From NCBI GenBank assembly GCA_964549735.1, contig CAZJWO010000002.1, forward strand, positions 27,358 to 91,357: a stretch of DNA of 64,000 nucleotides. The letters run 5' to 3'. Under the pieces are notes generated by a model. It had not been told where the DNA came from. It was given only the letters and a program-made list of their open reading frames with translations, and searched no databases. Positions 4,908-52,600 of the stretch are shown here, piece by piece. The stretch is from an uncultured Fibrobacteraceae bacterium (GTDB taxonomy: Bacteria; Krumholzibacteriota; Krumholzibacteriia; LZORAL124-64-63). How positions within the stretch are numbered: position 1 is the first letter of the stretch; every line of letters starts with the position of its first letter. Made by a program: the position numbers and the translations under genes.

Positions 4908-6983
4908 CTAGCCCGCCGGCGCCACACGCCAGACCAACTCCCCGGGGGCCAGGGCCGAGCTGTCCAGGCGGCTCGACAGCTCGGGGCCGAATTGCTGCAC
5001 CAGCAGCTGGGCGCTGAGCACGCCCACGAAAGCCATGTTCTCGCGGGCGGCCGTCAGCCGGCCGGCCTCCCATTTACGCTGCAAGCTGGCGACCCTCTCC
5101 GGCCGCCAGAAGCCCGCCGCGGCCAGCGCGGACGCGCTGAGTCGCTCGCGCGCCAGTTCGCGCCCGGCGCCGGCGACGAAGCTGGCGCTGTCCGGCGCCC
5201 GGTAGGGCTGCTTGTCGCGCGCGACGATCGGCGGCGGCAGCAGGTCGGCCACGGCCTGCTTCAGCAACGATTTCTCGTTGAGCGACTGCAGCTTGGCCGA
5301 GGCCGGCACGGTGGCGGCGAAGGCCCCCACGTCGGGATCGAGGAACGGGAAGCGGCCCTCCACCGAGTGCCCCATGAGCATCCGGTCGCCCTGGGAGTTG
5401 AGCAGGTAGCCCGACAGGAAGGTGGTCATCTCCAGGTACTGCGCGCGGGCCACGGGCCCCCAGTCGGCGAACGCGGCCGGCAGGGCGGCGGCCAGGCGCT
5501 GCTCCGGCTCGCCGCGCCGCAACGCCGCCGCCGCCTCGTCGGCGAGCAGGGAGGTCATCATGCCGGTGTTGGCCCAGCGCGGCCGGTGGCTGAAGAACGG
5601 CTCGTCGGGGCGGTCCAGACCCTGGCCGTAGAAGCGCGCCAGGAATTGCGGCGGCGACAGCTCCAGATAGGGGTACAGCCGCGTCAGCAGCAACGCGCGC
5701 CGCTCGTCCGCGGGACGGCGGCTCCAGAACCGGCGGACCTTGGCCTCGCGGAAGATGTTGTAGCCGACCCAGACCTCGTCGGCGCCCTCGCCGGTCAGCA
5801 CGACCTTGTACTGCTCGCCGCGCACCAGGCTCGACAACGCGTAGAGCGGCGCCGGCGCCGTGCGCAGGATCGGCGTCTCGGCATGCCAGATGACCGCGGG
5901 GAAATCCCGCGCGATGTCGGCGGCGCCGACGGTGATCAGGCGGTGGTCGGTGCCCAGATGGGCGACCATCAGCCGCTGCCAGGCCGATTCGTCGAAGGCG
6001 CTGTCCTCGAAACCCACGGAGAACGTCTTCAGACGCCGGTCGGTGTAGCGGTGGATGATCGCCGCGATGGCCGAAGAATCGAGACCGCCGGAGAGGTAGG
6101 CGCCCACCGGCACGTCGGCGCGCAGGCGCAGCACCGCGGCCTGGACCAGGCGCTCGCGCAGTTCGTCGGCCAGCCGGCGCTGCTCCTGCCGGTCCACGAA
6201 GCGGCGGTCCTCGTCCGCCGGCAGGAACGTCGGATGCCAGAAGCGGCGCAGGCGCAGGCGCGACGGCCAACCCGGCGCGGCCATCATGGACGCCGCGGAC
6301 GCCCCCGCGGCCGGCTGCCCGCTCGCCGCCCGCTCCTCGCCAGCGTCGAGAACCAGCGTCGCGGTGTGGCCCGCCGGCAGCTGCACGACGCCCCGGAACA
6401 CGGTGCGCGGCGGCACGGTCACCCAGTAGGTGAAGACCTCGGCGACCGCCTCGGGGTCGACCGCGGGCTGGAAGCCAGGCCAGGCCGCCAGCGCCTTGAC
6501 CTCCGAGGCGAAGAGCAGGTGGCCGGCGTGCTCGGCGACGTAGAGCGGCCGCACGCCGTAGCGGTCGCGGGCCAGGAAGAGGGTGCGGCGCGCCGAGTCC
6601 CAGATCGCGATGGCGAACTGGCCGTTGAATCGGTCGACGCAGCGGTCGCCCCATTGCTCGTAGGCGTGGACGATGACTTCGGTGTCCGAACGCGTGCGCA
6701 GGACGTGGCCCAGGGCCTCCAACTCGTGCGCCAGCTCGATGTAGTTGAAGATCTCGCCATTGAAGACGATCCAGCGGCTGGCGTCCTCGCTGGTCAGCGG
6801 CTGCTGGCCGGTCACCAGGTCGATGATGCTCAGGCGCGTATGGCCCAGGAAGGCGCGGTCGTCCCGCCAGGCTCCGAACTCGTCCGGGCCGCGGTGGCGC
6901 AAGGCGCCGACCATGCGCTCCGGCACGCCGTCGCGCAAACGCAGGGGTCCGTCGAGGGACACGACGCCACAGATGCCGCACAC
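4908..6983 (-). CDS. Asparagine synthetase (glutamine-hydrolysing) family amidotransferase, AsnB-like
   Basis: N-terminal MCGICGVV (class-II glutamine amidotransferase nucleophile Cys2); SGGLDSS PP-loop motif; 691 aa. Stop is 5 nt from the upstream ligase stop, so the two are co-transcribed. Confidence 0.9.
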   Translation of the reverse strand: MCGICGVVSLDGPLRLRDGVPERMVGALRHRGPDEFGAWRDDRAFLGHTRLSIIDLVTGQQPLTSEDASRWIVFNGEIFNYIELAHELEALGHVLRTRSDTEVIVHAYEQWGDRCVDRFNGQFAIAIWDSARRTLFLARDRYGVRPLYVAEHAGHLLFASEVKALAAWPGFQPAVDPEAVAEVFTYWVTVPPRTVFRGVVQLPAGHTATLVLDAGEERAASGQPAAGASAASMMAAPGWPSRLRLRRFWHPTFLPADEDRRFVDRQEQRRLADELRERLVQAAVLRLRADVPVGAYLSGGLDSSAIAAIIHRYTDRRLKTFSVGFEDSAFDESAWQRLMVAHLGTDHRLITVGAADIARDFPAVIWHAETPILRTAPAPLYALSSLVRGEQYKVVLTGEGADEVWVGYNIFREAKVRRFWSRRPADERRALLLTRLYPYLELSPPQFLARFYGQGLDRPDEPFFSHRPRWANTGMMTSLLADEAAAALRRGEPEQRLAAALPAAFADWGPVARAQYLEMTTFLSGYLLNSQGDRMLMGHSVEGRFPFLDPDVGAFAATVPASAKLQSLNEKSLLKQAVADLLPPPIVARDKQPYRAPDSASFVAGAGRELARERLSASALAAAGFWRPERVASLQRKWEAGRLTAARENMAFVGVLSAQLLVQQFGPELSSRLDSSALAPGELVWRVAPAG

Positions 6984-6987
6984 GGGG

Positions 6988-8610
6988 TCAGGTTCCTCTC
7001 GCCTGTTGCTTGAGCGCGAGGTAATCGATCTTGCCGCGGCTGGTGTGGGGCAACGCGCCGACCAAGGTCACGCGACCGGGCACCAGGTACGGCTCGAGTC
7101 GCTCGCGGCAGGCGCGGATGATCGCCGGCGGCGTCAGGCTGCTGCCCTCGCGCACGACGACGTAGGCGCAGACCATCTCGCCGAGGATCGGATCGGGCGC
7201 GCCGACGACGGCGGCCTCGACCACGTCCGGCAGACCATAGAGCGCGTTCTCGACCTCGCGCGGACTGACCTTCTCGCCCCGCGACTTGATGATGTCGTCG
7301 CTGCGTCCCTTGAAGTAGAGGAAGCCTTCGGCGTCCTGGGTGAACCAGTCTCCCGAGCGCAGCATGCGCTCGCCGGGCAAGGGCCCGGGCCGCAGCATCT
7401 GCGCGGTCTGTTCCGGCCGATTCCAGTAGCCCATCATGACATGCGGACCCCGCACGTGCAGGATCCCCATCTCGCCGGGCGCGACCGGCCGATTCTCGTC
7501 GTCGAGCAGCAGGACCTCGGTGCCGGGTATCGCCTTGCCCACCGACGCCGGTCGCTGCAGGACCAGCTCCGGCTCGAGGTAGCAGACCCGCTTGCATTCG
7601 GTCAGGCCGTACATCTTGTAGATGAGGGCGTTGGGGAAGATCTCGCGCAGGGCCGGCAGCATCTCGGCCGGCAGAGCGGCCGCGGTGTTCGTCACGCGCT
7701 GCACGCCGGGGAAGCAGAGGCTGCCGCGGCGGTGCAGATCGATCAGGGTGGCGAACATCGTCGGCACCCCGGGAAAGACCGTCACCTGCTCCTGGGCCAG
7801 CCGCTTGAGGATCGGCGCCGTGAACACGAAGTCCTTCTCCAGCAGGACCGTCGCGCCCACGTGCACGGCCATCAGGATCTGGTACAGGCCGTAGTCGAAG
7901 GCCAGCGGCAGGGCGCAGAGGATCCGGTGCGCGCCGTCGAGGCGCAGGTACTCGACGAGGCTGCCGCACGTGAAGACCATCGCCTGGTGCGTCATCATGA
8001 CGCCCTTCGGCTCTCCCGTGCTGCCGGAGGTATAGATCAACGCGGCGAGGTCCACCCCGATGGCCGGGCACGGCGCGTCGTCGGCGACCGACTCGGCCAG
8101 CGCGGCGGCCAGATCGTGCTCTGGCGGCGGGGCGGCGGGCGTCGCCTCGTGCGCCTCGTGCGCCTCGGCAGCGGCGGCCGCGTCGGCTGCGGCGGGATCG
8201 CCCCGGCTGACCGTCAGCACGGCTTCGAGCGACGGCAGGTCGCCGGCCGCGGAACGATACGTCGCCGCCAACCGGCGCTCGGAGATCAGGAAGCGCGCGC
8301 CGCAATCGTTCAACACGAAGCGCACCTTGTCCCGTTTGGTCTGCGGGTGGATGACCGCGAAGACCCCGCCCGCCAGGGACGTGCCGTAGATGGCGACCGC
8401 GCTCTCGACCGTGTTCTCCAGCAGGATCAGCACGCGGTCGCCGCGGCGCAGGCCCCGCCGCCGCAGCCAGGCGGCCAGCCGCCGGGCGGCGTCCCACAGC
8501 TGCCCATACGTGAGGGTCTGCGCGCCATCGCCGACGGCGGGATGAGCGGGACGCGCTGCGGCCTGGCGCGCCAGGGCATCGGGCAGCAGTCGCAGCTCCC
8601 CTGGTTGCAT
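6988..8610 (-). CDS. AMP-dependent synthetase/ligase (acyl-CoA or acyl-ACP synthetase family)
   Basis: YTSGSTGEPKGV AMP-binding motif; GEMGILHVRGPHVMMGYW; YFKGRSDDIIKSRGEKV. Start chosen at MQPGELRLL (8610), preceded by AAAGGTG. The long track ORF 6988..10152 extends upstream through a non-coding-looking stretch. Confidence 0.85.
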   Translation of the reverse strand: MQPGELRLLPDALARQAAARPAHPAVGDGAQTLTYGQLWDAARRLAAWLRRRGLRRGDRVLILLENTVESAVAIYGTSLAGGVFAVIHPQTKRDKVRFVLNDCGARFLISERRLAATYRSAAGDLPSLEAVLTVSRGDPAAADAAAAAEAHEAHEATPAAPPPEHDLAAALAESVADDAPCPAIGVDLAALIYTSGSTGEPKGVMMTHQAMVFTCGSLVEYLRLDGAHRILCALPLAFDYGLYQILMAVHVGATVLLEKDFVFTAPILKRLAQEQVTVFPGVPTMFATLIDLHRRGSLCFPGVQRVTNTAAALPAEMLPALREIFPNALIYKMYGLTECKRVCYLEPELVLQRPASVGKAIPGTEVLLLDDENRPVAPGEMGILHVRGPHVMMGYWNRPEQTAQMLRPGPLPGERMLRSGDWFTQDAEGFLYFKGRSDDIIKSRGEKVSPREVENALYGLPDVVEAAVVGAPDPILGEMVCAYVVVREGSSLTPPAIIRACRERLEPYLVPGRVTLVGALPHTSRGKIDYLALKQQARGT

Positions 8611-8700
8611 GCGCACGCACCTTTCGTCGGACGCCGGGCCGGTCAGCCGGCCGGCAAACGCCGGGAACCCTTCCATAATGAAGCACTTATGTCTTTCGAC

Positions 8701-8715
8701 CCCTTGCGGCAAGGG
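8701..8715. promoter_or_regulatory. Perfect 7-1-7 palindrome CCCTTGC-C-GCAAGGG in the divergent ligase/methyltransferase intergenic region
   Basis: Read directly from the sequence; lies ~90 nt upstream of the ligase start and ~200 nt upstream of the HemK-like gene. Confidence 0.3.
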
Positions 8716-8913
8716 TTGAGTATCATTAAGCGGGAAACCAACCTGACGCAACTGCCGGCCGCGGCGCCGCGAAATGCGGCGCACGCCAAGGCCGACCGAG
8801 ACGCCCGCGGGCCGCTGTGCTAAGCTGCCGCCAGCGCCGGCCCTCCGCCCGGATCGTCCCCATCGCTGCGGGTCGACGATGTCGTGCAACCACCCTCGCC
8901 GAAGGATTCGCAC

Positions 8914-9780
8914 ATGTTCCCTGGATTCCAACGCGTTTACGACGCCTTCCGGCAAGCGGAGATCGCCGAACCGCTCCAGGAGACGCTGCGCCTGTTCGAC
9001 GTGATCTCCAGCGGCGCCATCCGCGCCATGGATCCCGAAGCTCCCGCGGCGATCGAGCTGGAGCGTCTGGCGGCCGGACGCCAGGCCGGCACGCCGTTGG
9101 AGTACCTGCTCGGCAAGGCGGCGTTCATGGGCTTGCAGCTCACGTGCTCGCCGGACGCCCTGATCCCCCGCGCCGAGACGGAACTGCTGGCGCGCACCGC
9201 GCTGGAGCTGATCCGCGCCCGCCAGGGCGCCCAGGCGCGCCTGACGGTCGTCGACATGGGGACCGGCAGCGGCAACATCGCCGTCGCGCTGGCGGTCAAC
9301 ACGCGCGACGTCGACGTCCTGGCCAGCGACGTCAGTCCGCAGGCGGTCGACCTGGCGCGGCGGCAGGTGGCCGCCTTCGCGCTGCAGGACAGGGTGACCT
9401 TGTTCTGCGGCGACCTCTACGAACCGCTGGTCGCGGCCGGATGGGCCGGCAAGATCGACGTCCTGGTCTGCAACCCGCCCTATCTGCCGACGAGCACGCT
9501 GGCCAAGCTGGCCCGCGAGATCATCGACCACGAACCGACGGTCGCGCTCGATGCCGGGCCCTACGGCATCAACATCTACCGCCGACTGATCACCGGCGCG
9601 GGCGACATGCTCAAGCCCGATGGCGTCCTGGTCTTCGAGATCGGCGCCGGCCAGGAGAAGCTGGTGACGCGATTGCTGGAAGGCGTCGGCATCTACCCGA
9701 CGATCGATTACCACCGCGACGCCGAGGGACAGATCCGCGTCGTCAGCGCCGATCGGCGCCGGATCGCCGGCGATGCCTGA
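8914..9780 (+). CDS. HemK/PrmC-family protein (glutamine-N5) methyltransferase-like SAM-dependent methyltransferase
   Basis: VDMGTGSGNIAVALA SAM-binding motif I and NPPY catalytic motif (VLVCNPPYLP). GAAGGA RBS 8 nt upstream of ATG 8914. Confidence 0.7.
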   Translation: MFPGFQRVYDAFRQAEIAEPLQETLRLFDVISSGAIRAMDPEAPAAIELERLAAGRQAGTPLEYLLGKAAFMGLQLTCSPDALIPRAETELLARTALELIRARQGAQARLTVVDMGTGSGNIAVALAVNTRDVDVLASDVSPQAVDLARRQVAAFALQDRVTLFCGDLYEPLVAAGWAGKIDVLVCNPPYLPTSTLAKLAREIIDHEPTVALDAGPYGINIYRRLITGAGDMLKPDGVLVFEIGAGQEKLVTRLLEGVGIYPTIDYHRDAEGQIRVVSADRRRIAGDA

Positions 9781-10195
9781 ACCCGGCGCGAACGAACGCG
9801 AGGCGATCGCCCGCGCCCTGGCGGCATGGTACGAGGCCTGGCGCGCGCACGACCTCGAGAGCGTGCTGTCCCTGCTGCACGACGACGTGCGGTTCGAGCA
9901 CTGGGACGGCAGCGTGGTGGTCGGCAAGTCGGCCCTGCGCCGGGCGTGGTCCGGCTGGTTCGCCGGCCGCGACTTCCACTTCGCCGAGGAGGAGACGTTC
10001 GTCGACGCCGGTGCATGCAAGGCGCTGTTCCGCTGGCGACTGACCTGGCCGGCGCCAGGGCCCGATCGCCGCGGCGAGTTCGAAGTCCGCCGCGGCGTCG
10101 ACGTGCTGCATTTCCTGGACGCTCGGATCATCCGCAAACTCACGTACACCAAGACGACCGTGACCGCGGCCGGTCGCGGGGCTCAGCCGGCCTGA
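9773..10195 (+). CDS. NTF2-like / SnoaL-like small protein
   Basis: 140 aa; the pattern EAIARALAAWYEAWRAHDLESVLSLLHDDVRFEHW is typical of the SnoaL/DUF4440 fold. Overlaps the upstream gene by 8 nt. Confidence 0.45.
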   Translation: MPEPGANEREAIARALAAWYEAWRAHDLESVLSLLHDDVRFEHWDGSVVVGKSALRRAWSGWFAGRDFHFAEEETFVDAGACKALFRWRLTWPAPGPDRRGEFEVRRGVDVLHFLDARIIRKLTYTKTTVTAAGRGAQPA

Positions 10196-10917
10196 GCCGC
10201 GTCCGCGCCGCCCGCCAGCGCGAGCGCGCGCGGGAACAGCACGTTGTTCTCCTTGTGGATGTGGCGGTGCAGATCCCTCTCGAGCTGTTCCAACTCCTCG
10301 TAGTAGGCGCGGAAGGTGGCGCACGCATCGGCGGGCGACGCGTAACCCGAGCTCAGGTCGCGCAGTCTGGCGAGCGCGGCGCCGGCCTGTTCGTGCTCGT
10401 GTTCCATCACGCGGATCGGATTGGACAGGTGGCCGCAGTGGAACTCCGCGGCCCCCCGCGTCCGCTCGAGCATGCGGATCGCCGGGAACAGCACCTCCTC
10501 TTCCTTGCCGAGGTGCATCTCGATCTCGGCGATCAATCCCCGCAGCACGTCGCGCATCTCGACGAGTTGGGGATGCTTGGCCCCGTGCACGTCGTGGACC
10601 TTCGCCGCCAGCGCCGCCAGGCGCGGCAACGCCTCGCGCAGGTAGGCGTGATGCGTCTGTTCGAGGTGGTCGACCAGGTCGGTCAACGTGAGCCGACGGA
10701 CATCGGGCTCGGCGGCGGCGGCCGCCGCCGCGATCGGCGGTCGCGCCAGCATCCGCGCCACGGTCGCCGGGTCCAGACCGGCCTCGCGGCAGGCGTCGGC
10801 GAGCGCGCGTCCGCCGCCGCAGCAGAAGTCCAGGCCGAGCGCCTCGAGAACCGCGGCGCGAGCCGGATTCTCCGCGACCAGATCGCCCAACGTACGGTCC
10901 AGGGCCAGCGGATTCAT
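10183..10917 (-). CDS. Iron-sulfur cluster repair di-iron protein (RIC / YtfE / ScdA family)
   Basis: GLDFCCGG N-terminal motif, then two hemerythrin-like HxxxE/HHxxEE regions (HHAYLRE, HLGKEEEVLFP, MEHEHEQAG, HIHKENNVLFP). Start at MNPLAL (10917) with an AGGAGG RBS. Confidence 0.8.
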   Translation of the reverse strand: MNPLALDRTLGDLVAENPARAAVLEALGLDFCCGGGRALADACREAGLDPATVARMLARPPIAAAAAAAEPDVRRLTLTDLVDHLEQTHHAYLREALPRLAALAAKVHDVHGAKHPQLVEMRDVLRGLIAEIEMHLGKEEEVLFPAIRMLERTRGAAEFHCGHLSNPIRVMEHEHEQAGAALARLRDLSSGYASPADACATFRAYYEELEQLERDLHRHIHKENNVLFPRALALAGGADAAQAG

Positions 10918-11071
10918 GGCAGCCTCCTGATTTCGAGCATCCTTCGCCAGCGGGCGCACAGCCGCCGCCGGACTTGCGGCCACGCCCGCCGTGATGTGCG
11001 CCGCGGTGCCGGCGGCGCGAACGCGGGCGAACGATTAACCAGGGTAATTTGATCCTATATTAGCCCGCGCA

Positions 11072-11091
11072 ATTGTGGATGTCAAGGTCCA
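11072..11091 (-). promoter_or_regulatory. Operator-like motif TGGACCTTGACATCCACAAT, ~155 nt upstream of the ric start, minus orientation
   Basis: One of three copies of TGGACC-N6-TCYACAAT found in this island; see the finding at 10183-14188. Confidence 0.5.
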
Positions 11092-11124
11092 TTATATCGC
11101 AGGACCGAGACACGAGGCGGCGGG

Positions 11125-11847
11125 TCATTCCGGCCAGCCGACCGTCTGCGCGAGAAGGATGCGGTGTTCGGCCGGCAGGCCGAGCGCCGCGGACAGGCGG
11201 TCGCGATCCACCATGCCACGCACGACGGTCGCCAATCCCGCCGACGCGCAGTAGAGGTAGATGTTCTCGCTGATGAAGCCGGCGTGCGAGCCCGCCCAGA
11301 TGAGCGCGCTGTCGTCCACCTCGGCCGGCAGGCGCTCGACCAGGACCAGGTTCACGGGAGCGTCCTCGACGAAATCCTGCCGGCCGGTCAAGGCGCGCAG
11401 GTCGCCCGCGGCGATCGGCTGGAGCGTGTGCCCGTGCGCGTCGTAGAGATACGCTCCTGCGGCCAGCACGACGTACAGATCGGTGGTCTGGCGGTTGCGG
11501 GCCGACGGAGCCGTGCGATGGCCGGTTTCCGGACGGCTCACGCCCCACGCCGCCCAGAGCAGGGTCGAGAGCACCGGCAACGGCAACGGATCGGGCGCGA
11601 ACGCGCGCTGGGACTTGCGTGCCGCGAGCGCCGACAGCAGCGGCATGCCGCCGGTCGTTTCCGGAGCCGGCAGGACGATCGGCTGCAGGTCTGCCGCGAG
11701 ATCGGTCGCGACGGAGGTCGCGCCGCCAGCCGCTTCCGAGGCCGCCGGCACGACGGTGGCGAGCATGAGGAGCGCCGGCGTCAGGGCGGCGAGGCGTCCC
11801 AGGCGCAAGGCGGCGGCGTGGCGACGAGCGTCGAAGTTCCGGTCCAT
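11125..11847 (-). CDS. Nitroreductase-family protein (SagB-type / NAD(P)H nitroreductase fold) with N-terminal signal peptide or Tat-like leader
   Basis: Start at MDRNFDARRHAAALRLGRLAALTPALLMLATVVPAASEA (GGAGGA RBS). The body LWAAWGVSRP...TAPSARNRQTTDLYVV...GFISENIYLYCASAGLATVVRGMVD matches the nitroreductase fold. The N-terminal ~150 aa of track ORF 11125..12294 are discarded as non-coding. Confidence 0.65.
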   Translation of the reverse strand: MDRNFDARRHAAALRLGRLAALTPALLMLATVVPAASEAAGGATSVATDLAADLQPIVLPAPETTGGMPLLSALAARKSQRAFAPDPLPLPVLSTLLWAAWGVSRPETGHRTAPSARNRQTTDLYVVLAAGAYLYDAHGHTLQPIAAGDLRALTGRQDFVEDAPVNLVLVERLPAEVDDSALIWAGSHAGFISENIYLYCASAGLATVVRGMVDRDRLSAALGLPAEHRILLAQTVGWPE

Positions 11848-11954
11848 TGCTTCCTCCGGGGCTGGTGCTGCGGGCGAGCGTACGCTGTCGAGGGCGCCGG
11901 CGTCCAGATGCAGATCGCGATCGCTGTTCGGCTTGGTGAACACGCCTCTTCGTG

Positions 11955-11976
11955 CTATTGTAGATATCCGGGTCCA
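11955..11976 (-). promoter_or_regulatory. Operator-like motif TGGACCCGGATATCTACAATAG in the Rrf2 / nitroreductase divergent region, minus orientation
   Basis: Second copy of TGGACC-N6-TCYACAAT, ~110 nt upstream of the nitroreductase start and ~30 nt upstream of the Rrf2 start. Confidence 0.5.
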
Positions 11977-12004
11977 CATCTTTCTTCGCACGAGCGGAGG
12001 AACC

Positions 12005-12466
12005 ATGCTCTCGCAAACCGCCGAATACGCCCTGCGCGCCGTGGTCTGGCTGGCCGCGCAGAATGCCCAGACGACAACAGCCGGCGCCGGCAGTTCCGCG
12101 CGCACCACGGCGCAGATCGCCGCCGGCACCAAGGTGCCCGCCGGATATCTCGCCAAGGTGATGCAGCGGCTCGGTCGCGCCAGCCTGGTCAAGGCGCAGC
12201 GCGGACTCGGCGGCGGATTCACGCTGGCGCGCGACGCGGCGGCGATCACCGCCCTGGATGTCGTCGAGGCCGTCGAGCCGATCGCGCGCATCATCGACTG
12301 TCCGCTCGGCGTCGCCGACCACTCCGGCTGCCTCTGCCCCCTGCACAGCCGCCTCGATCAACTGCTGGAGACCGCGTCCAGGACGCTCGGCTCGACGACG
12401 ATCGCCGCGCTCGTCGCCGAGCCGGCGACCGGCCGGCCCTTCTGCGGCATCCCGCCGGAGGATTGA
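12005..12466 (+). CDS. Rrf2-family transcriptional regulator (NsrR/IscR-like)
   Basis: N-terminal MLSQTAEYALRAVVWLA winged-helix signature and a three-Cys cluster IIDCPLGVADHSGCLCPLH for Fe-S ligation. GGAGGA RBS upstream of ATG 12005. Confidence 0.8.
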   Translation: MLSQTAEYALRAVVWLAAQNAQTTTAGAGSSARTTAQIAAGTKVPAGYLAKVMQRLGRASLVKAQRGLGGGFTLARDAAAITALDVVEAVEPIARIIDCPLGVADHSGCLCPLHSRLDQLLETASRTLGSTTIAALVAEPATGRPFCGIPPED

Positions 12467-12473
12467 CCCCGGA

Positions 12474-13673
12474 TCACGCGTAGTACAGCAATCGCCGCTC
12501 GCCCTCCAGTTGCCGGATGTGGGTGACGTCCTGCGTCATCTCCAGGCAGCCCCGATAGACGCCGTCCTGTCGCACCGCGAAGTAACGGATGTGCACGAAG
12601 CGCCCCTGGAAGGTGATCCAGAACTCGGCCTGCGACTGGGTGCCGGCCCGGAAATCGGCGAGGATGCGCTCGACGGTGTCGACGCTCTTGGGCGGATGGC
12701 AGTGCTGCACCTTGCGGCCGAGGATCACGGCGGATCGCGTGAAGACGCGGTCCGGGCCCTCGCTGAAGAAGCGCACGCGATCGTCCTCGTCGACGAAGGT
12801 CAGGTCGACCGGCATGGTCGAGAACAGCAGCCGCAGCTGCTCGTGCGTCAACACGCCGGTGCCGAGGTCGATGCCGGCCGTCGCCGTCATCGCCACCGGT
12901 TCGGGGCCGGCGGCCGGTTGCGGCGGCTGCCAGGCGGCGCGCGGCATGACGAGGCACCAGCCGTATTGCGGACTATCGGCGTGGATCCGGCCCCAATCCT
13001 CCTCCGTGAAGAGGCTCTGGCACATCGGGACCAGGATCGTCTCTTCGCGCTCGACCATCTTGACCAGCAGGTCGACCGCTTCGCGTCCCGCATTCTGGAC
13101 GTCCGACCACGCCGACTGCGGCGCCAGCAGGCGATCGAAGCCGGCCAGCGCCTGGCGCACCTCGTCGTCCTTGCCCCACATGACCTTCGACGGCCCGTCG
13201 ACGCCGTGCCGCTCGAGGATCGAGAACCAGGCGTTCTCCTTGCGCTGGTAATGCTTCTCGACGTCCATCAGCGCGTTCAGGCCGCGGCGCAGGGCGAGCA
13301 GGCGCTGCTCGTCCGGCCAGGCGACCTCGCCGGAGAGCAGGTCCGCCAGCTCGCGCGCGTGGCTCTTCAGGGCGGCGTTCTCCTGCTGCAGGACGTCGAC
13401 CGGATGACCGGGCGGCACCAGCTGCACGACCGGCGCCACCAGATCGGCCACGACCTCGCGGTGCAGGTCGCACATGCCCATGATCTCGGCGACCGGCATG
13501 CCCTGGGCGATGAGCTCCTGCTCCATCGCGGCGATCTCGCCGGCGTCGCACTGCCCGACGAGTTCCCGCAGGCGGTCCTTGACCTCCGCCGCCGGGCGGC
13601 CGGCATGCAGATCGCGGATGATCGCGGCGAGCGTCGCGATGCGTCGCTGCTGGTTGTTGATGAGTTCGCTCAC
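12474..13673 (-). CDS. DUF438-family protein with hemerythrin-like cation-binding and C-terminal PAS-like region
   Basis: Apparent GTG start at 13673 (VSELINNQQRR), overlapping the DUF1858 stop by 4 nt (GTGA). HxxxE-type motifs (CDLHREV, MDVEKHYQRKENAWF). The C-terminal region LTFVDEDDRVRFFS...RKVQHCHPPKSV resembles the PAS_10 domain usually fused to DUF438. The upstream portion of track ORF 12474..14078 is in a different gene's space. Confidence 0.55.
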   Translation of the reverse strand: MSELINNQQRRIATLAAIIRDLHAGRPAAEVKDRLRELVGQCDAGEIAAMEQELIAQGMPVAEIMGMCDLHREVVADLVAPVVQLVPPGHPVDVLQQENAALKSHARELADLLSGEVAWPDEQRLLALRRGLNALMDVEKHYQRKENAWFSILERHGVDGPSKVMWGKDDEVRQALAGFDRLLAPQSAWSDVQNAGREAVDLLVKMVEREETILVPMCQSLFTEEDWGRIHADSPQYGWCLVMPRAAWQPPQPAAGPEPVAMTATAGIDLGTGVLTHEQLRLLFSTMPVDLTFVDEDDRVRFFSEGPDRVFTRSAVILGRKVQHCHPPKSVDTVERILADFRAGTQSQAEFWITFQGRFVHIRYFAVRQDGVYRGCLEMTQDVTHIRQLEGERRLLYYA

Positions 13674-13963
13674 GGATTGGCCTCCTTGGGGGCAAGGCGC
13701 GGCGCGGCACCCGCCGCCGCGCCGGTCGCCGTCGCGCCGCCGGCTTCCCGCTCGCCCGCGGCGGCGTGCAGGGCGGCCAGGACCTCGCCGAGCGCGCGGT
13801 CGTTGCGCTCGCAGGCCTGGCGCAGCGTGACCAGCCGGGACATGACCTGGCGGGTCACCGGATTGGCCAGCGGCTTGAAGCCCTGCGCCACCAGGACTTC
13901 GAGCATCCACGGATCGCGTCGCAGGAGTTCCGCCACGGTCAGGTCGGGATCGAAACGAGACAC
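13670..13963 (-). CDS. DUF1858-domain protein
   Basis: 97 aa; DLTVAELLRRDPWMLEVLVAQGFKPLANP...TLRQAC matches the DUF1858 fold that usually partners DUF438 in NO-responsive loci. Confidence 0.55.
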   Translation of the reverse strand: MSRFDPDLTVAELLRRDPWMLEVLVAQGFKPLANPVTRQVMSRLVTLRQACERNDRALGEVLAALHAAAGEREAGGATATGAAAGAAPRLAPKEANP

Positions 13964-14012
13964 GGCGCCACCTTCCTGCCGGCCGGCGCGATCGCCCGGA
14001 TTGCGCCGGCGG

Positions 14013-14033
14013 TTTCAATAACTGGACCTTGTT
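14013..14033 (+). promoter_or_regulatory. Operator-like motif TGGACCTTGTTGTCCACAATA in the DUF1858 / ldh divergent region, plus orientation
   Basis: Third and best copy; contains a perfect inverted repeat TGGAC-N6-GTCCA. Lies ~155 nt upstream of ldh and 50 nt upstream of the DUF1858 start. Confidence 0.5.
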
Positions 14034-14188
14034 GTCCACAATATAGGCGCATGCGACGCGCAGCGCAAAGGACGGCACACCGGGCGGGGCGCGGCCGGTC
14101 CGGTTGCCGCCTCCGGCGCGTTGCCCTTGCTTGTCGCAGCAGGCTGCGCGGAGGACGCGCCGCCCCCTCGAGCAGGAGGTGGACGTAG

Positions 14189-15136
14189 ATGAAGATCGGC
14201 ATCGTCGGCACCGGCATGGTCGGCTCCTCGGCCGCCTACGCGATGGTCATGAACGGCATCGGCCGCGAGATCGTCATGATCGACAAGGACCGTGCGCGCG
14301 CCGAGGCCGAAGCGGCCGACCTCTCGCACGCCGTGCCCTTCGCCCACCCGCTGCGCATCCACGCCGGCGACTACGCCGACCTCGCCGGCGCCCGCGCGGT
14401 CGTCATCGCGGCCGGCGTCGGCCGCAAACCGGACGAGTCGCGGCTGCAGCTCCTCGAGCGCAACGCCGGCGTCTTCGCCGACGTGGTGCCGCGCATCCTC
14501 GAGCACGCGCCGCAAGCGATCCTCGTGATCGCGACCAACCCCGTCGACGTCATGACGCACATGGCGGCGCGGTATGCCGAAGCGTTCGCCGTGCCGCACG
14601 GCCGCGTCATCGGCTCGGGCACGACCCTGGACACGGCCCGCTTCCGCGCGCTCCTGGGCCGCGAGCTCGGCGTCGACCCCGCGCACGTGCACGCCTACGT
14701 GATCGGCGAACACGGCGACAGCGAGGTGCTCACGTGGTCGGCCGCGACCATCGCGGGCGTGCCGCTCGCGGACTTCTGCCGGCTGCACGGGATCGACCTC
14801 GACGACGAGAAGAAGGCCCAGATCGACCACGCCGTGCGCAAGGCGGCGCCGCCGATCATCGCCGGCAAGGGCGCGACCTATTACGGCATCGGCGCGGCCC
14901 TGGCCCGCATCGTCGACGTCATCCTGCTGGATCAGCGCGCCATCCTGACGATCTGCACCATGAGCCACGGCGTGCTCGGCCACGACGACGTGACCGTCTC
15001 GTTCCCGCACCTGCTGGGCGGTTCGGGCATGCTCTTGCCGATCCCGCCGCAGGTCGACGAGGGCGAGACGAAGGCGCTGGCGGCCAGCGTCGCCGTCGTG
15101 CGCGAAGCGACGTCCGCGCTCGAGAAGCAGCGCTAG
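14189..15136 (+). CDS. ldh: L-lactate dehydrogenase (LDH/MDH superfamily)
   Basis: [13 protein letters not shown] Rossmann motif, [22 protein letters not shown], catalytic-loop [10 protein letters not shown]. 315 aa. Confidence 0.85.
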
Positions 15137-16314
15137 CCAGGCTGCGGCGCGATGCGGACGCTCTCGCTGGCGAAGACGAGCATCTGCACCGGCTGGACCC
15201 GGATGCGGACCTCGCTGCCTTCGGCCAGATCGACGGCGCCGGGCAGGCGCGCGTGCAGATGCACGGCGGCGGCCGCCGCCGCGCCGTTCAAGATCCGCAG
15301 GTGGATCAGCGTGGCGCCGGGCAGGACGCGTCGGGCCAAGACCTGCGCGGGCAGCAACGGCCCGGCGTCGGCGCGGTCCAGGCGCGTGATGTTGCCGCGG
15401 GCGGCGGCGTCGACGAGCACGGCCTCCGGCCGGAAGATCACATCGGCCGCCTGCCCGTCCTTGAGCCAGCCGGCCGGCACCGGACCGAACGGTGTCGCGA
15501 CCTCGCCGCCGCGCACGACGCCCTGCAAGCGGTTCACCTCGCCGAAGAACCCCGCCACGAACGGGCTCTGCGGCCGATAGTAGAGGTCGGTCGCCGTACC
15601 GCTCTGCAGGATGCGGCCCTGATCCATCAGCACGATGCGATCGCCCATGAACATCGCTTCTTCGGGGTCGTGCGTGACCATGACCGTGGCCACGCCGCTG
15701 GACTTCAGCACGTGCAGGGTCTCGTCGCGCACCTGGCTGCGCAGGCGCGAGTCCAGGCTCGAGAAGGGCTCGTCCAGCAGCATGATCGCCGGCGCCGGCG
15801 CCAGGGCCCGCGCCAACGCGGCGCGCTGTTGCTGGCCGCCCGAAAGCTGGTGCGGGAACGCGTGCAGATACTCGCGCAGGTCGACGCGCAGCAGCGCGCA
15901 CTCGGCGATCTCGCGGCGCTCCCGGCGGTCCTTGACCGCCGCCAGGCCGAACATCGCGTTCTGCAGGACCGTCAAGTGCGGAAAGAGCGCGAAGTCCTGG
16001 AACAGGAAGCCGATCCCGCGTTGCTCGGGCAGCAGCTGCCCGCGCTGGTCGGCGATGACGACGCCGTCCAGGCCGATCGCGCCGGCCTGCAAGGTCTCCA
16101 GACCGGCGATGAGCCGCAGCAAGGTCGTCTTGCCGCAGCCGGAAGCCCCGAGCAGGCACACGATCTCGGCCGGCGCCACGGTCAGGTGCACGTCGGCGAG
16201 CACGCGCCGGTCGCCGAACGCGTGATGGACGCCGGCGACCCGCAAGCGCGGCCGTCCGTTGCGGCCGTCGCCGACCACTTCGCGACGCGGCGGTTGCGCA
16301 CGTTCTTTCGGCAT
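15133..16314 (-). CDS. ABC transporter ATP-binding protein (Fe3+ / spermidine-type importer ATPase, FbpC/PotA-like)
   Basis: Walker [10 protein letters not shown], signature [15 protein letters not shown], Walker [11 protein letters not shown], and a C-terminal TOBE-like domain. Confidence 0.85.
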
Positions 16315-48077: not shown

Positions 48078-49574
48078 CTACTCTACGGGTTCACGACGGG
48101 AGCGCCCATCCTGATCCGGCAGGACGATGCCCAGCTGCTTGAGGCGACGGTAGAGGGTGGTCTTGTGGATGCCGAGGTCCCGCGCGGCCGCCAGGCGATT
48201 GCCCTGATTACGCGCCAGCGCGGCGTGGATGACCTGCGTGTCGACGATATCGCGGACCTCGCGGGCCGTCCGCACGCCCTGGCGCCGGGCATCCACGCCG
48301 CGATCGGCCGTCAGCTCGACGGGCAGATGCGCGATCCCGATGAGCCCGTCTCCGCAGAGCACGAACGCCCGCTCGACCGCGTTGGCCAGCTCACGGATGT
48401 TTCCCGGCCAGTCATGGGCCATCAGCAGCGACAGGGCCTCTGGCGCTACGCCCGCCACGGCCTTGCCTTGCAGCCGATTGAAGCGGGCGATGAACTGATC
48501 GACGAGCAGGGGAATGTCCTCCTTGCGGCGGCGCAGCGGCGGCAATTCGATGCGCACGACGTTGACGCGATAGTAGAGGTCTTCACGGAAACGGCCGCGG
48601 CGCACCTGTTCGGCGAGGTCCTTGTTGGTCGCGACCACGACCCGCACGTCGGCGGTCTCGGTGCGGGTCGACCCCAGCGGTTCGAACGTCCTCTCCTGCA
48701 GCACGCGCAGGAGGCGCACCTGCAGGGCCGGACTCACCTCGCCGATCTCGTCGAGGAAGATCGTGCCGCCTCCCGCCAGGGCGAAACGGCCCGGCTTGTC
48801 GGCTTGCGCGCCGGTGAACGCGCCCGCCTTGTAGCCGAAGAGCTCGGACTCGAGCAGCGCATCGGGCAGGGCGCCGCAATTGACGGCGACGAAAGACCTG
48901 CTGCCGCGGGGACTCTGCTCATGGATGGTGCGGGCGATGAGTTCCTTGCCGGTTCCGGTTTCGCCGAGCACGAGCACCGTGCTCGGACTGGCCGCTATCG
49001 CGGGCAGGACCTCGAAGATGCGTTGCATGAGCGGACTGCGACTGGTCAGCTCGCCGATGCTGTGCCTGCCAGCCAGCTCGCGCCGGAGCGCCTCGACTTC
49101 GGCGAGATCGCGGAACGTCTCGACACCGCCGATGATGCGCCCCGCACCGTCGCGCAACACCGCGGTCGAGAGGCTGATCGGCCGATGGTTGCCCTCGGCG
49201 TCGACGATGTAGGCCGACTTGCCGATGATCGGCTTGCCGGTCTGCAGCGTCTGTTGCAGCGCGCAGTCGTCTCCGCACAGGCTGGAGCGGAAGACGTCGC
49301 AGCAGCGCCGGCCCAGAGCCTCCGCGCGGGGCACGCCGGTGATCTGTTCGGCGGCCCGATTGAAAGCGCTGATGCACCACTGGTGGTCTACGGTGAACAC
49401 GCCGTCCGAGATGCTCTCGAGGATGGTCTCCGTCGGGCTGAGGCGGACCGGCCGACGTGTCTGCTTGCGGGGATTCATCGACGGCTGCCTCCGGCGCACG
49501 CCGCTGGGAACGCCGCCCGGCGGCGTCCCGAGCGGGGCGTCTCGCGGTGGCGAAGATTGACGCTCCGCATCCAC
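48078..49574 (-). CDS. Sigma-54-dependent transcriptional activator with an N-terminal PAS sensory domain (no receiver) and C-terminal Fis-type HTH
   Basis: Walker A GETGTGKE, GAFTGA motif (KAGAFTGAQ), ESELFGY, LYYRVNVVRIELPPLRRR, and C-terminal LGIHKTTLYRRLKQLGI. Alternative start at MNPRKQ. Confidence 0.85.
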   Translation of the reverse strand: MDAERQSSPPRDAPLGTPPGGVPSGVRRRQPSMNPRKQTRRPVRLSPTETILESISDGVFTVDHQWCISAFNRAAEQITGVPRAEALGRRCCDVFRSSLCGDDCALQQTLQTGKPIIGKSAYIVDAEGNHRPISLSTAVLRDGAGRIIGGVETFRDLAEVEALRRELAGRHSIGELTSRSPLMQRIFEVLPAIAASPSTVLVLGETGTGKELIARTIHEQSPRGSRSFVAVNCGALPDALLESELFGYKAGAFTGAQADKPGRFALAGGGTIFLDEIGEVSPALQVRLLRVLQERTFEPLGSTRTETADVRVVVATNKDLAEQVRRGRFREDLYYRVNVVRIELPPLRRRKEDIPLLVDQFIARFNRLQGKAVAGVAPEALSLLMAHDWPGNIRELANAVERAFVLCGDGLIGIAHLPVELTADRGVDARRQGVRTAREVRDIVDTQVIHAALARNQGNRLAAARDLGIHKTTLYRRLKQLGIVLPDQDGRSRREPVE

Positions 49575-49666: not shown

Positions 49667-52600
49667 TCACCTGCTGCCGACCGTCAGCTCGAGATCGTCG
49701 GCGGATCGATCCGGCCGCGCCGCCTCCTGCGCCTGCGCCTCCGGCCGCCCGCGGTCCGCGGGCAGCCACCGGCGCAGCGCCTTGGCGACGGACCGCAAGG
49801 AGATCGGCTTGGCGATGTAGTCGTCCATGCCCCTGGCCAGGCACCGCTCGCGGTCGCCCTGCATGGCATGGGCTGTCATGGCGATGATCGGAATCCGTCG
49901 ATCGCGGACCCCGGATCGCGGATCGCGGATGGCGCGCGTCGCCGCCAGGCCGTCCATCTCCGGCATCTGGACATCCATGAGCACGAGATCGTAGGACTCG
50001 TTCTTCAGGGCTGCGACCGCGTCGGCGCCGTTGGCCACGACATCGGCGCGCAGGCCGAGCTTCCGCAGGATGCCTCGCGCCACCTGCTGATTGATGACGT
50101 TGTCCTCCGCCACGAGGATACGGGCCTCGCAGCCCGCGAACATCAGCGCCGGCTCGCGAACGGCTGCGATCTTCTCGGCGCGCGGCTGCGCGTCGGCGCC
50201 GATGTCGCCCGCGCCCAGCGCCTCGACCAGCGCCGCTGCGAGTTCGTCGCGGCGGACCGGCTTGGCCACCGACACGGCGAATCCGAGCCGCGCGGCGTCG
50301 CCGGCATCGCCGCCGCGCCCCAACGGCGCCAGGAGCACGAGCGGAAGCGCCGCCAGCCGGGAGTCGCTGCGGACGGCCTTCGCCAGCGCGAGTCCGTCCA
50401 TGCCGGTCATCTGCATGTCGACGAGGACGACCCGGAACGGATCCTCGGCGGAGGCGGCCTCGGCGAGCGCCGCGAGCGCGGCGAGGCCATCCGGCGCGAC
50501 GTCCGCGCGCACGTCCCAGGCGGACATGCAGGCGGTGAGGACTTCGCGGCTGGCCGCGTTGTCGTCGACGACCAGCGCGCGGACGCCCTTCAGGGCGGGA
50601 ACAGCTACCGGAACCGCGGCCGCGGCCGCCTCGGCCGGACAGCGGCCGAACGACATGGTGAACCAGAATTCGGCGCCCCGCCCCTCGTCGCTCTCGACAC
50701 CGATCTCACCGCCCATCAGTTCGACCAGTTCCTTGGAGATGGCGAGACCGAGTCCGGTGCCGCCGTAGCGTCGTGTCGTCGAGGCATCGATCTGGTTGAA
50801 TTTGACGAAGAGCCGATCCTGCCTGTCGCGAGGTATGCCGATACCCGTGTCGCGCACGGAGAAGCGCAACCGCACGTCCTGTTCGGACTCCCCAACGAGG
50901 GTGGCCCGCACGGCGACTTCGCCCGCGGGGGTGAACTTGATCGCATTGCCGGCCAGGTTCGTCAAGATCTGGCGCAGGCGTCCCGGATCGCCTCGCAGCC
51001 GGAGCGGCACCTTCGGTTCGACGTAGCAAGTCAGCTCGAGACCTTTCTCGTGCGCGCGGACGGCCAGGCTGGCCGCGAAATCCTCGAACATGCCGGCCAG
51101 ATCGAAATCGAGGTCTTCGATCTCGAGCCTGCGCGCTTCGATCTTGGAGAAATCCAGGATGTCGTTGATGAGTCCCAGCAGCACCTCGCCGCTCGCTTGC
51201 ACAGTCGCCGCGTAACGGTGCTGCTCCGGCGACAGCCCGGCGTCCAGCAACAGGCCCGTCATGCCGATGATCCCGTTCAACGGCGTGCGGATCTCGTGGC
51301 TCATGTTCGCCAGGAATTCGCTCTTGGCGATGTTGGCCATCTCGGCCTGGGCCGCCATGTCGCGAGCTTTGGCCATCGCGGACTCCAGCTCGCGATTGGC
51401 CACGCGGAGCTCCTGCGCCGAGCGCGCCACCGCCGCCTCCGCGTTCTTGCGCTCGGTGACGTCGCGCGCCACCGCATAGATGAAATCGCCGAGCGGATGC
51501 GATCGCCATTCGATCCAGCGGTAGGCGCCGTCCTGGCGTCGGTAACGGTTCTCGAAGCTCAAGACATCCTGGTGGGCGTCCAGCTTCGCCATCGCCGCCA
51601 ACGTGGTCTCGATGTCGTCCGGATGCACGAAATCGAGGTAGCGGCGGCCGACGAGGTCCGTCATCGCGTAACCGAGCACTTGCTGCCATCGCGGATTCAA
51701 GCGCACGAAACGGCCTTCCATGTCGGCGATGCAGAGCAGGTCGAGGCTGGAGCTGAAGTAGCGCTCCAGCTCCTCGCCCTTGGCCGCCAGGGCCCGATAG
51801 GCCTCGTTGCGCGTGATGGCCTGCGCGATGATCTCGGCGACGACCCGCAGCATGCGGACCTGGTCCTCCGGCCAGGTGCGGCGCGCGCGCACCGCGTCGA
51901 AGCCGAGGAAACCGAGCAGCCGGCCGTGATCCTGGCGCATCGGCAGGCAGATCAAGGAACGGATGCCCTGCGCCGATAGCTCCGCCTTCTCCGCGGCGGC
52001 TTCCGGCGGCAGCTCCTCGACGGCGGGGATCTGCAGCGCCGACGAGTCGAGGAACTGGGCGTTCAGCCAGGGCATCGCGGCGACCGGGAGGTTCTGTACC
52101 CGCTCGCGCTGCGGGGCGATGCCCGGCGCACACCACTCATGCGTGTTGTCCATCGTCGCCAGGTCCGTGGAGTATCGGAACAGATAGCTGCGGTCGGCCG
52201 CGAGCAGCTCGCCGAGCCTGCGCAACGCGCTATCGACGGCCTCGTCGTAGTCGCGGTCGGACAGCCGGACGAATCGCGATGAGATCTCGGCGACGGCGGT
52301 CTGGAATTCGAGCTGGAACTGCATGGCGCGCTCGGCGTGCCGGCGCGCGGAGATGTCCACGGCGGAACCGCGGTAACCCCGCAAGCCGCCAGCCTCGTCC
52401 AGCAACGGCACGCCGTTGGTGGCGACCACGACGACGCGGCCATCCTTCGCCAGCAGGGGGACCTCCAGATCCGAAATGCACTCACGCCTGGCGAACACGT
52501 CGAGCAGCGCCTGCTTGTACTCGGCGCGCTCGTCGGCCGGGAATTGATCGAAGAACGCCATGCGCCCGACGAGCTCCTGCGGCCGGTAGCCGAGGACCTG

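Follow-up and report, generated by a model that had tools for sequence, protein, structure and literature searches.

To our knowledge, nitric oxide (NO) sensing by Rrf2-family regulators is understood almost entirely through NsrR of proteobacteria, Bacillus and Streptomyces. NsrR, as known from E. coli, Neisseria, Bacillus and Streptomyces coelicolor, is a [4Fe-4S] NO-sensing Rrf2 repressor, and hmp is its most conserved target. In the S. coelicolor protein (ScNsrR) the cluster ligands are three clustered cysteines (C93, C99, C105) and a carboxylate from the other subunit. For another member of the family, RsrR of S. venezuelae, we take one subunit to contribute the ligands Glu8 and His12 and its partner Cys90 and Cys110, positions that we checked on the sequence of structure 6HSD. 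RsrR is a [2Fe-2S] redox sensor of solved structure (PDB 6HSD; DNA complex 6Y42), and its published sites are two 25-bp boxes of the form 11-3-11, 1 bp apart (PMC5015018). The NsrR consensus is gATGyAT-N5-ATrCATc, and the NsrR regulon of Neisseria and the beta-proteobacteria contains ytfE/dnrN, which encodes RIC, and norB (PMC1274295). The NsrR box of Thermus thermophilus is CTTGACC-NN-GGTCATGG, with a 5-2-5 core (PMC5748679). Here we describe a locus in a 64-kb stretch of DNA from an uncultured bacterium (contig CAZJWO010000002.1; the whole stretch is called the window), where a palindromic element occurs three times around a gene for an Rrf2-family protein. We consider it fairly probable that the three sites, named A, B and C, are the operators of this protein (12005–12466), acting as an autoregulated repressor with a regulon for NO detoxification.

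The element had been noticed in a sequence-only reading of the window as TGGACC-N6-TCYACAAT. An exact search with TGGACCNNNNNNTCYACAAT finds three matches, at 11072–11091 (minus strand), 11957–11976 (minus strand) and 14023–14042 (plus strand), all of them intergenic. The three-copy motif is real, as 100 dinucleotide-preserving shuffles of the window contained no match and the expected number is zero. Its coordinates had been given 10 nt too low for the plus-strand copy (14013–14033 for 14023–14043), and for the third copy the first base is 11956 instead of 11955; the remaining ones were right. At the core of the element is a 16-bp dyad, TGGAY-N6-RTCCA (or GGA-N8-TCC), flanked by A/T-rich sequence. 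A symmetrised 24-nt position weight matrix (PWM), WWWnTGGATnTnnAnATCCAnWWW, scores 24.5 bits at site B, 22.6 bits at site A and 14.1 bits at site C, and these are the only places in the window with 8 bits or more. Two looser matches were rejected as chance: one at 32625 within coding sequence, and one at 48161 in the stretch coding for the C-terminal helix-turn-helix of a 498-aa open reading frame (ORF) that resembles a sigma-54-type activator. An RNA element at the locus was likewise rejected, since an Rfam scan of 10000–15300 gave nothing relevant.

Site B (11071–11095) has the core TGGATGTCAAGGTCCA on the plus strand (11076–11091), a perfect match to the consensus of the family, flanked by AATTG and TTAT. 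It lies between ric, which starts at 10917 (minus strand), and the nitroreductase gene, which stops at 11125, and an identical core is present in eleven related loci (L011, L017, L018, L032, L033, L037, L047 and L169–L172; L numbers denote individual loci throughout). The predicted sigma-70 promoter of ric (11057–11085, minus strand) consists of TTGACA (11085–11080), a 17-nt spacer and TAATAT (11062–11057). It is the sole promoter-like match in 10850–14250, with agreement at 10 of 12 positions, and its -35 hexamer falls within site B. Read by eye, the same layout with TTGACA inside the operator is also seen before ric or norB in L003 and L007.

Site C (11956–11980), the weakest copy, has the core TAGATATCCGGGTCCA on the plus strand (11961–11976) and lies between the start of the nitroreductase gene (11847, minus strand) and that of rrf2 (12005). 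From its end to the rrf2 ATG there are 28 nt, in line with the median of 31 nt in the related loci. The predicted rrf2 promoter (11933–11961, plus strand) is TTGGTG (11933–11938), a 17-nt spacer and TATTGT (11956–11961), so that the last T of the -10 hexamer is the first base of the site. The ACAAT(A) at the end of the element had been taken for a -10-like sequence facing the nitroreductase gene; there is indeed a TACAAT in that direction, but it has no -35. On the opposite strand the same bases read as the -10 hexamer TATTGT, and we therefore interpret site C as a predicted autoregulatory promoter-operator of rrf2. The orientation first assigned to the element points away from rrf2 in 46 of the 54 matches found upstream of rrf2 genes in related loci by a PWM that was derived from the three sites of the window.

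Site A (14019–14043; core TGGACCTTGTTGTCCA at 14023–14038) is a perfect 5-6-5 palindrome and does contain the inverted repeat TGGAC-N6-GTCCA described for it before. It precedes two divergent genes, DUF1858 (start 13963, minus strand) by 59 nt and ldh (start 14189) by 150 nt. On the minus strand it reads TATATT-g-TGGACAACAAGGTCCA, and the promoter predicted for the DUF1858-DUF438 genes (14040–14068, minus strand; TTGCGC at 14068–14063, 17-nt spacer, TATATT at 14045–14040) ends 1 nt ahead of the site. Operators of the form (A/T)GGA(C/T)AA-N4-TGTCC(T/A) are found just past the -10 upstream of DUF1858 in L089, L172 and L173, and in weaker form in L007. The -10 boxes there, TACAAT (L089, L172), TATCAT (L173) and TATATT (L007), stand 1–3 nt ahead of the operator. 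Site A is thus the predicted promoter-operator of the DUF1858-DUF438 operon. No sigma-70 promoter facing ldh at site A or the nitroreductase gene at site C passed the scan. The earlier claim that the element overlaps promoters holds for the promoters predicted here. Of the genes then assigned to the sites, ric stands as the target of site B, while site A belongs to DUF1858-DUF438 rather than ldh and site C to rrf2 rather than the nitroreductase gene.

The conservation of the element was assessed beside relatives of the Rrf2 gene. Homologs with 50–67% identity were placed in 81 genomic loci (702 kb), which by the labels of their metagenome-assembled genomes (MAGs) are mostly from Planctomycetota; other labels are Latescibacteria, Lentisphaerae, Obscuribacterales, Armatimonadota, Verrucomicrobia and Acidobacteria. 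The strict pattern TGGA-N8-TCCA, derived from the window, has 55 copies in these loci compared with 8.7 expected, and nearly all are within 140 nt upstream of rrf2. The PWM of the three window sites yields 93 matches vs. 23 in shuffles, 54 of the 93 being no more than 250 nt upstream of rrf2. A test for enriched 7-mers, run without a seed on the 150 nt that precede rrf2, returned GGATGTC in 33 of the 81 loci (0.9 expected) and, overall, four 7-mers (GGATGTC, ATGTCAA, TGTCAAG and ATATCCA) in 24–33 loci each where less than one is expected. With a trained 24-nt PWM at least one site is found within 250 nt upstream of rrf2 in 57 of 81 loci, and two sites in 20. By this matrix 85 of 109 sites are concentrated in 2.9% of the sequence of the loci, and the median gap from the end of the site to the rrf2 ATG is 31 nt.

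The rrf2-proximal sites follow a promoter of the form TTGAC-N17/18-TAnnnT, the final T of the -10 being the first T of TGGAT, and the non-palindromic centre GTCAA is directed towards rrf2 in 29 cases and away from it in none. As a negative control we used 80 metagenomic loci encoding DUF438 proteins. In the 78 distant ones (49–58% identity) there were just two marginal matches of 13–14 bits, whereas the two close relatives of the window in this set (L089 and L090; DUF438 84% identical) have strong sites. Since the DUF438 loci of distant lineages are without sites, the motif appears to track the regulator clade and not the target genes. The expectation of a conserved transcription factor site tied to the local Rrf2 protein is thus borne out by the 57 loci and by the tests that use patterns from the window only; neither of the two outcomes named beforehand as refuting it was seen, as the motif is kept in related loci and is not scattered over unrelated genes, either in the window scan or in the DUF438 control loci.

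In many rrf2-proximal sites (L010, L014, L025, L037, L065, L076 and others) another half-site, the third, comes after a further 8 nt (TGGATGTCAAGGTCCAgATATCCA) and leads into a run of T. The unit could possibly be two overlapping sites or a palindrome of 24 bp, TGGAT-N14-ATCCA. None of the window sites has the third TCCA, and the partner sites on the upstream side are simple 16-mers, for which reason we provisionally keep the 16-bp core as the unit. The operator sequence ATGGATGTCAAGGTC translates as Met-Asp-Val-Lys-Val, and several Rrf2 homologs in the databases (P0029, P0068 and P0097) have spurious N-terminal extensions beginning with MDVKV or MDIFV. A matching artefactual ORF, MDVKVHYIAG, is found in the window at 11075–11254 (plus strand). 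Because the operator itself reads as MDVKV, this appears to be a recurrent miscall of the start codon in Rrf2 annotation.

The genes that flank the sites or diverge from rrf2 in the related genomes encode RIC (14 loci), qNor (11), Tll0287-like proteins (7), hemerythrins (4) and radical SAM proteins (3); NapH-like ferredoxin and c-type cytochromes are also seen. In 14 of the 81 loci the RIC gene adjoins this rrf2 clade. The NO reductases at the sites are, by their domains (NorB_cytochrome_c-like plus COX1), of the quinol type; those divergent from rrf2 have the NorB cytochrome-c-like N-terminal domain (PF22085) in L003, L012, L034, L035, L056, L065, L072, L081 and L084. Both qNor and RIC belong to the classical NO response (PMC1274295), and according to a preprint Rrf2 genes adjoin nod (NO dismutase-like) genes in other phyla. 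The presence of qNor and RIC in the regulon leads us to propose NO as the signal, and the initial description of the locus as a nitrosative-stress island agrees with their occurrence at sites in other genomes. The hallmark target of RsrR, nmrA, is absent from the rrf2 loci.

The Rrf2 protein of the window (12005–12466, plus strand; 153 aa), the proposed binder of the three sites, passes the superfamily models PF02082 (91.8 bits, cutoff 30) and TIGR00738 (98.9 vs. 73.3). It fails the NsrR equivalog NF008240 (48.1 bits vs. a cutoff of 182) as well as those for IscR (46.5 vs. 207.6), RirA (43.2 vs. 193) and CymR (34.6 vs. 195). A profile of 32 clade members has RsrR of S. venezuelae as its best match in the PDB (E 1.5e-21), with ScNsrR fourth (4.5e-11). 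In an AlphaFold2 monomer model (pLDDT 90.7) the top 37 fold matches are all Rrf2 proteins, and RsrR is again the best, with 34–36% identity. Most of the 201 clade sequences have exactly three cysteines, and E7, C99, H106, C111, H114 and C147 are each conserved in 195–201 of them. C99 and C111 align with C93 and C105 of ScNsrR, while the third invariant cysteine, C147, is near the C-terminus; the canonical middle cysteine (C99 of ScNsrR) is replaced by Ser, Gly, Ala, Thr or Asp. E7 aligns with E8 of RsrR and C111 with C110. The label “NsrR-like, three-Cys” given to the protein at first is therefore misleading, as it fails the NsrR model, lacks the middle cysteine and is closer to RsrR. The searchable literature yielded no account of this clade of regulators or of its operator, nor of a planctomycete or comparable NsrR operator.

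We propose the following model, in which we infer repression, the Fe-S cluster with its ligands, and the NO signal. A dimeric Rrf2 repressor would bind the 16-bp palindromes A, B and C and, when bound, block RNA polymerase. Occupancy of site B would overlap the -35 of ric. Site C would span the transcription start of rrf2 and thereby mediate autoregulation, in an intergenic region shared with the nitroreductase gene, and site A would be placed over the DUF1858-DUF438 promoter as site C is over that of rrf2. The cluster would most likely be held by C99, C111 and C147 together with E7 of the partner subunit, with H106 and H114 nearby, which would be a non-canonical ligand set. Modification of the cluster by NO, or by some similar nitrosative or redox stress, would release the repressor from the DNA. 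Derepression would then raise RIC, the nitroreductase, DUF1858-DUF438 and the repressor itself, and in other genomes qNor, small hemerythrins and Tll0287-like proteins.

Several observations weigh against this model. The 24-nt PWM was trained on the loci that it scored, and only the counts with the strict pattern, the matches of the PWM from the three window sites and the k-mer enrichment are independent of that training. No site was found in 24 of the 81 rrf2 loci, and in L089 and L172, which carry sites, the fetched flanks do not include an rrf2 gene. With 14 bits site C is weak, and the promoters of ric, rrf2 and DUF1858-DUF438 are all predictions. The RsrR ligand H12 corresponds to an invariant arginine (R11) in this clade, and the tail with C147 is modeled with low confidence (mean pLDDT of the block 63), which makes the ligand set a guess. 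Also, hmp was not seen among the flanking genes, and the hemerythrin-rich targets and the kinship with RsrR are compatible with O2, redox state or iron as the signal.

Whether site A also drives ldh, encoding L-lactate dehydrogenase (LDH; 14189–15136, plus strand, divergent to site A; 315 aa; TIGR01771 335 bits, cutoff 304), has to be weighed separately. If site A were a shared operator, LDH would be an NO-inducible member of the regulon, as had been suggested from the sequence, and we regard this as doubtful. The divergent arrangement of ldh and DUF1858, with the operator 145–172 nt upstream of the ldh ATG, is found in the window, L089, L172 and L173, and the ldh side of site A is also flanked by an A/T-rich -10-like sequence. 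These four syntenic loci, however, are close relatives (LDH 82–88% identical), and their synteny may be mere common descent. Furthermore, the sigma-70 scan returned no acceptable ldh-facing promoter overlapping site A, no LDH gene is present within 5 kb of rrf2 in any of the 81 loci, and in L007 DUF1858 has another upstream neighbor. The MAG of L007 has ldh on another contig, the end of which is 152 nt upstream of the gene, and is thus uninformative. Instead, ldh has a conserved block of its own 45–95 nt before its ATG, which is separate from the operator, downstream of it and at least 55 nt away. This block (14100–14145 in the window; also in L089, L172, L173 and L174) reads TTGCCG...CGTT...TTGCTTGTC. 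Its sequence departs from the -10 consensus of sigma-70, and it may be a regulatory site of another kind or a promoter read by a different sigma factor.

That the regulator and its operators are as proposed but the signal is not NO, being instead the redox state of a [2Fe-2S] cluster (as in RsrR), O2 or iron, seems to us unlikely. RsrR is the best match in both sequence and fold, half-site and recognition helix are common to the two proteins, many of the targets have hemerythrin domains, which bind O2 or iron, and the canonical cysteine triad of NsrR is absent. On the other hand, the RsrR ligand H12 is not conserved and nmrA is missing from the loci, whereas the commonest neighbors and site-flanked genes are qNor and RIC, whose place in the NO response is established (PMC1274295).

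We think it very improbable that the palindrome is bound by some other regulator, with the linkage to rrf2 being incidental. A candidate would be an NO or O2 sensor of the CRP/FNR family, the box of which (TGTGA-N6-TCACA) has the same 5-6-5 form; a 16-bp 5-6-5 site is unusual for Rrf2 proteins, for which boxes of 19–25 bp are described, and the sites of L089 and L172 would fit with this as well. The element, however, keeps a constant place over the transcription start of rrf2 in the majority of loci and in several phyla, and its half-site equals that of RsrR, for which there is a co-crystal with DNA (6Y42). Positions over +1 or the -35 suit a repressor and not a class II activator at -41.5, and the motif vanishes in distant lineages that retain DUF438. 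A likeness due to shared promoter sequence (TTGACA and an A/T-rich -10) or to chance, with no dedicated regulator, has next to no probability: site B does hold a perfect TTGACA and TATTGT-like hexamers abut all three copies, but the conserved TGGA/TCCA arms are dyad-symmetric and outside the promoter hexamers, sites A and C are without TTGACA, the chance expectation of copies is zero, and the strong conservation across phyla is bound to one regulator clade.

With the Rrf2 repressor and its three operators retained as the preferred explanation, the genes of the locus can be described in this light. All the gene identities initially assigned (RIC, nitroreductase, Rrf2, DUF438/DUF1858 and L-LDH) were confirmed by Pfam and NCBIfam. 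The target of site B, ric (10183–10917, minus strand; 244 aa), encodes a di-iron Fe-S repair protein of the ytfE/scdA type with ScdA_N and Hemerythrin domains (TIGR03652 240 bits, cutoff 205). Between sites C and B is the gene for the nitroreductase-family protein (11125–11847, minus strand; 240 aa; PF00881), for which matches to the SagB type are weak and below cutoff. This gene is probably co-regulated with the site-controlled genes; in L008, L169, L172 and L089 ric and then this gene form one operon with a single operator in front. The first gene of the site A operon encodes the 97-aa DUF1858 protein (13670–13963, minus strand; PF08984), whose start, VSRFDPDL, aligns with MSRIDPDL of L089. 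The second (12474–13673, minus strand) encodes a 399-aa protein with DUF438, Hemerythrin and PAS_10 domains by Pfam, and its GTG start codon shares bases with the stop of DUF1858 (GTGA). The operon is kept in L007, L089, L169 and L172.

The order of genes in the window, nitroreductase then ric, is swapped relative to all relatives examined (L008, L169, L172 and L089), which have ric then nitroreductase; despite this the operator remains in front of ric. Site B retains the flank AATTGT, which elsewhere is the rrf2 -10, and no plus-strand gene is downstream of it here. The swapped order and this flank look like the trace of a local rearrangement. The nitroreductase has an N-terminal leader of ~45 aa with an RR pair and a hydrophobic stretch (MDRNFDARRHAAALRLGRLAALTPALLMLATVVPAASEAAGG) that is signal-like, and the protein may be exported, which would be unusual for its family. 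Long overlapping ORFs are present on both strands throughout the window, e.g., 6745–8823 (plus strand), 6830–8686 (minus strand) and 6988–10152 (minus strand). As this is the usual artefact of a G+C content of about 70%, lists of ORFs are not usable as gene calls here. A search of the 64 kb for tRNA genes found none, and the proteins of the window include FlgD_ig tails and TonB-dependent receptors by domain content. The 498-aa ORF (48078–49574, minus strand), which by its sequence resembles sigma-54-dependent activators, is adjoined by a gene for a 1547-aa hybrid histidine kinase (49667–54310, minus strand) with dCache, PAS and GAF domains and two receiver domains. This signalling module is unrelated to the operator finding.

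The analysis brings out a clade of regulators that is widespread and uncharacterised, with a candidate operator and a first putative regulon of qNor, RIC, hemerythrins and DUF1858-DUF438. The groups that carry it are of importance for the turnover of nitrogen oxides in soils, sediments and wastewater. The work also offers a regulatory handle on the function of DUF438 and DUF1858 proteins and flags the operator-caused MDVKV N-termini as a recurrent annotation error. For the evolution of the Rrf2 family the clade is a natural experiment in which an RsrR half-site is combined with a 1-bp change of spacing and what may be another ligand set. As a tentative suggestion, on which we are somewhat short of even confidence, the clade could be a third, independently evolved Fe-S sensor of NO that arose from an RsrR-like ancestor, with non-canonical ligands and the RsrR-type half-sites 1 bp closer together, and that serves as the main NO switch for qNor/nod-like genes and RIC in Planctomycetota and other poorly studied phyla.

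Compared with the known systems, the locus resembles NsrR in the Rrf2 fold, in repressor sites that overlap promoters, in a regulon with RIC and norB, and in having E7 at the position of the carboxylate ligand. The operator is different, since gATGyAT-N5-ATrCATc is unlike TGGAY-N6-RTCCA in both sequence and spacing; this mismatch to the published NsrR box had been recognized in the sequence-only reading, where the likeness to the RsrR half-site was not compared. In IscR, C92, C104 and H107 have the same C-X12-C-X2-H spacing as C99, C111 and H114 here, and the IRO box of RirA, TGA-N9-TCA, is a similarly compact palindrome. IscR and RirA share the fold, but the targets here are not isc/suf or iron-uptake genes. 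NsrR of T. thermophilus is likewise an Fe-S Rrf2 regulator of nor/nir genes, encoded beside a small ScdA-domain protein, with a short palindrome and control of itself, but it differs in its box, in having the three canonical cysteines and in acting as both activator and repressor (PMC5748679).

The closest solved relative by sequence and fold is RsrR. The recognition helix YLAK.MQ.L.RAGLV is common to both proteins, and the RsrR gene is likewise autoregulated from a divergent intergenic region. From the nmrA-rsrR intergenic regions of three Streptomyces loci (L176, L178 and L181) we reconstructed the RsrR boxes as two tandem copies of ACTCGGAYAY-N3-RTRTCCGAGT, in agreement with the published sites (PMC5015018). 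Their half-site, GGAT(A/G)T, is the same as that found here. The RsrR box is GGA-N9-TCC with ACTC flanks and in tandem, whereas the operator here is GGA-N8-TCC, 1 bp shorter, with A/T-rich flanks. The proteins differ in the spacing of the cysteines, which is 20 residues in RsrR and 12 in this clade, and in the additional invariant residues H106, H114 and C147. They also differ in their regulons, nmrA and NAD(P)H metabolism for RsrR as opposed to qNor, RIC and hemerythrins. Taken together, we conclude that by its sequence the operator is a 1-bp-shorter relative of the RsrR box, attached to a predicted regulon that resembles that of NsrR.

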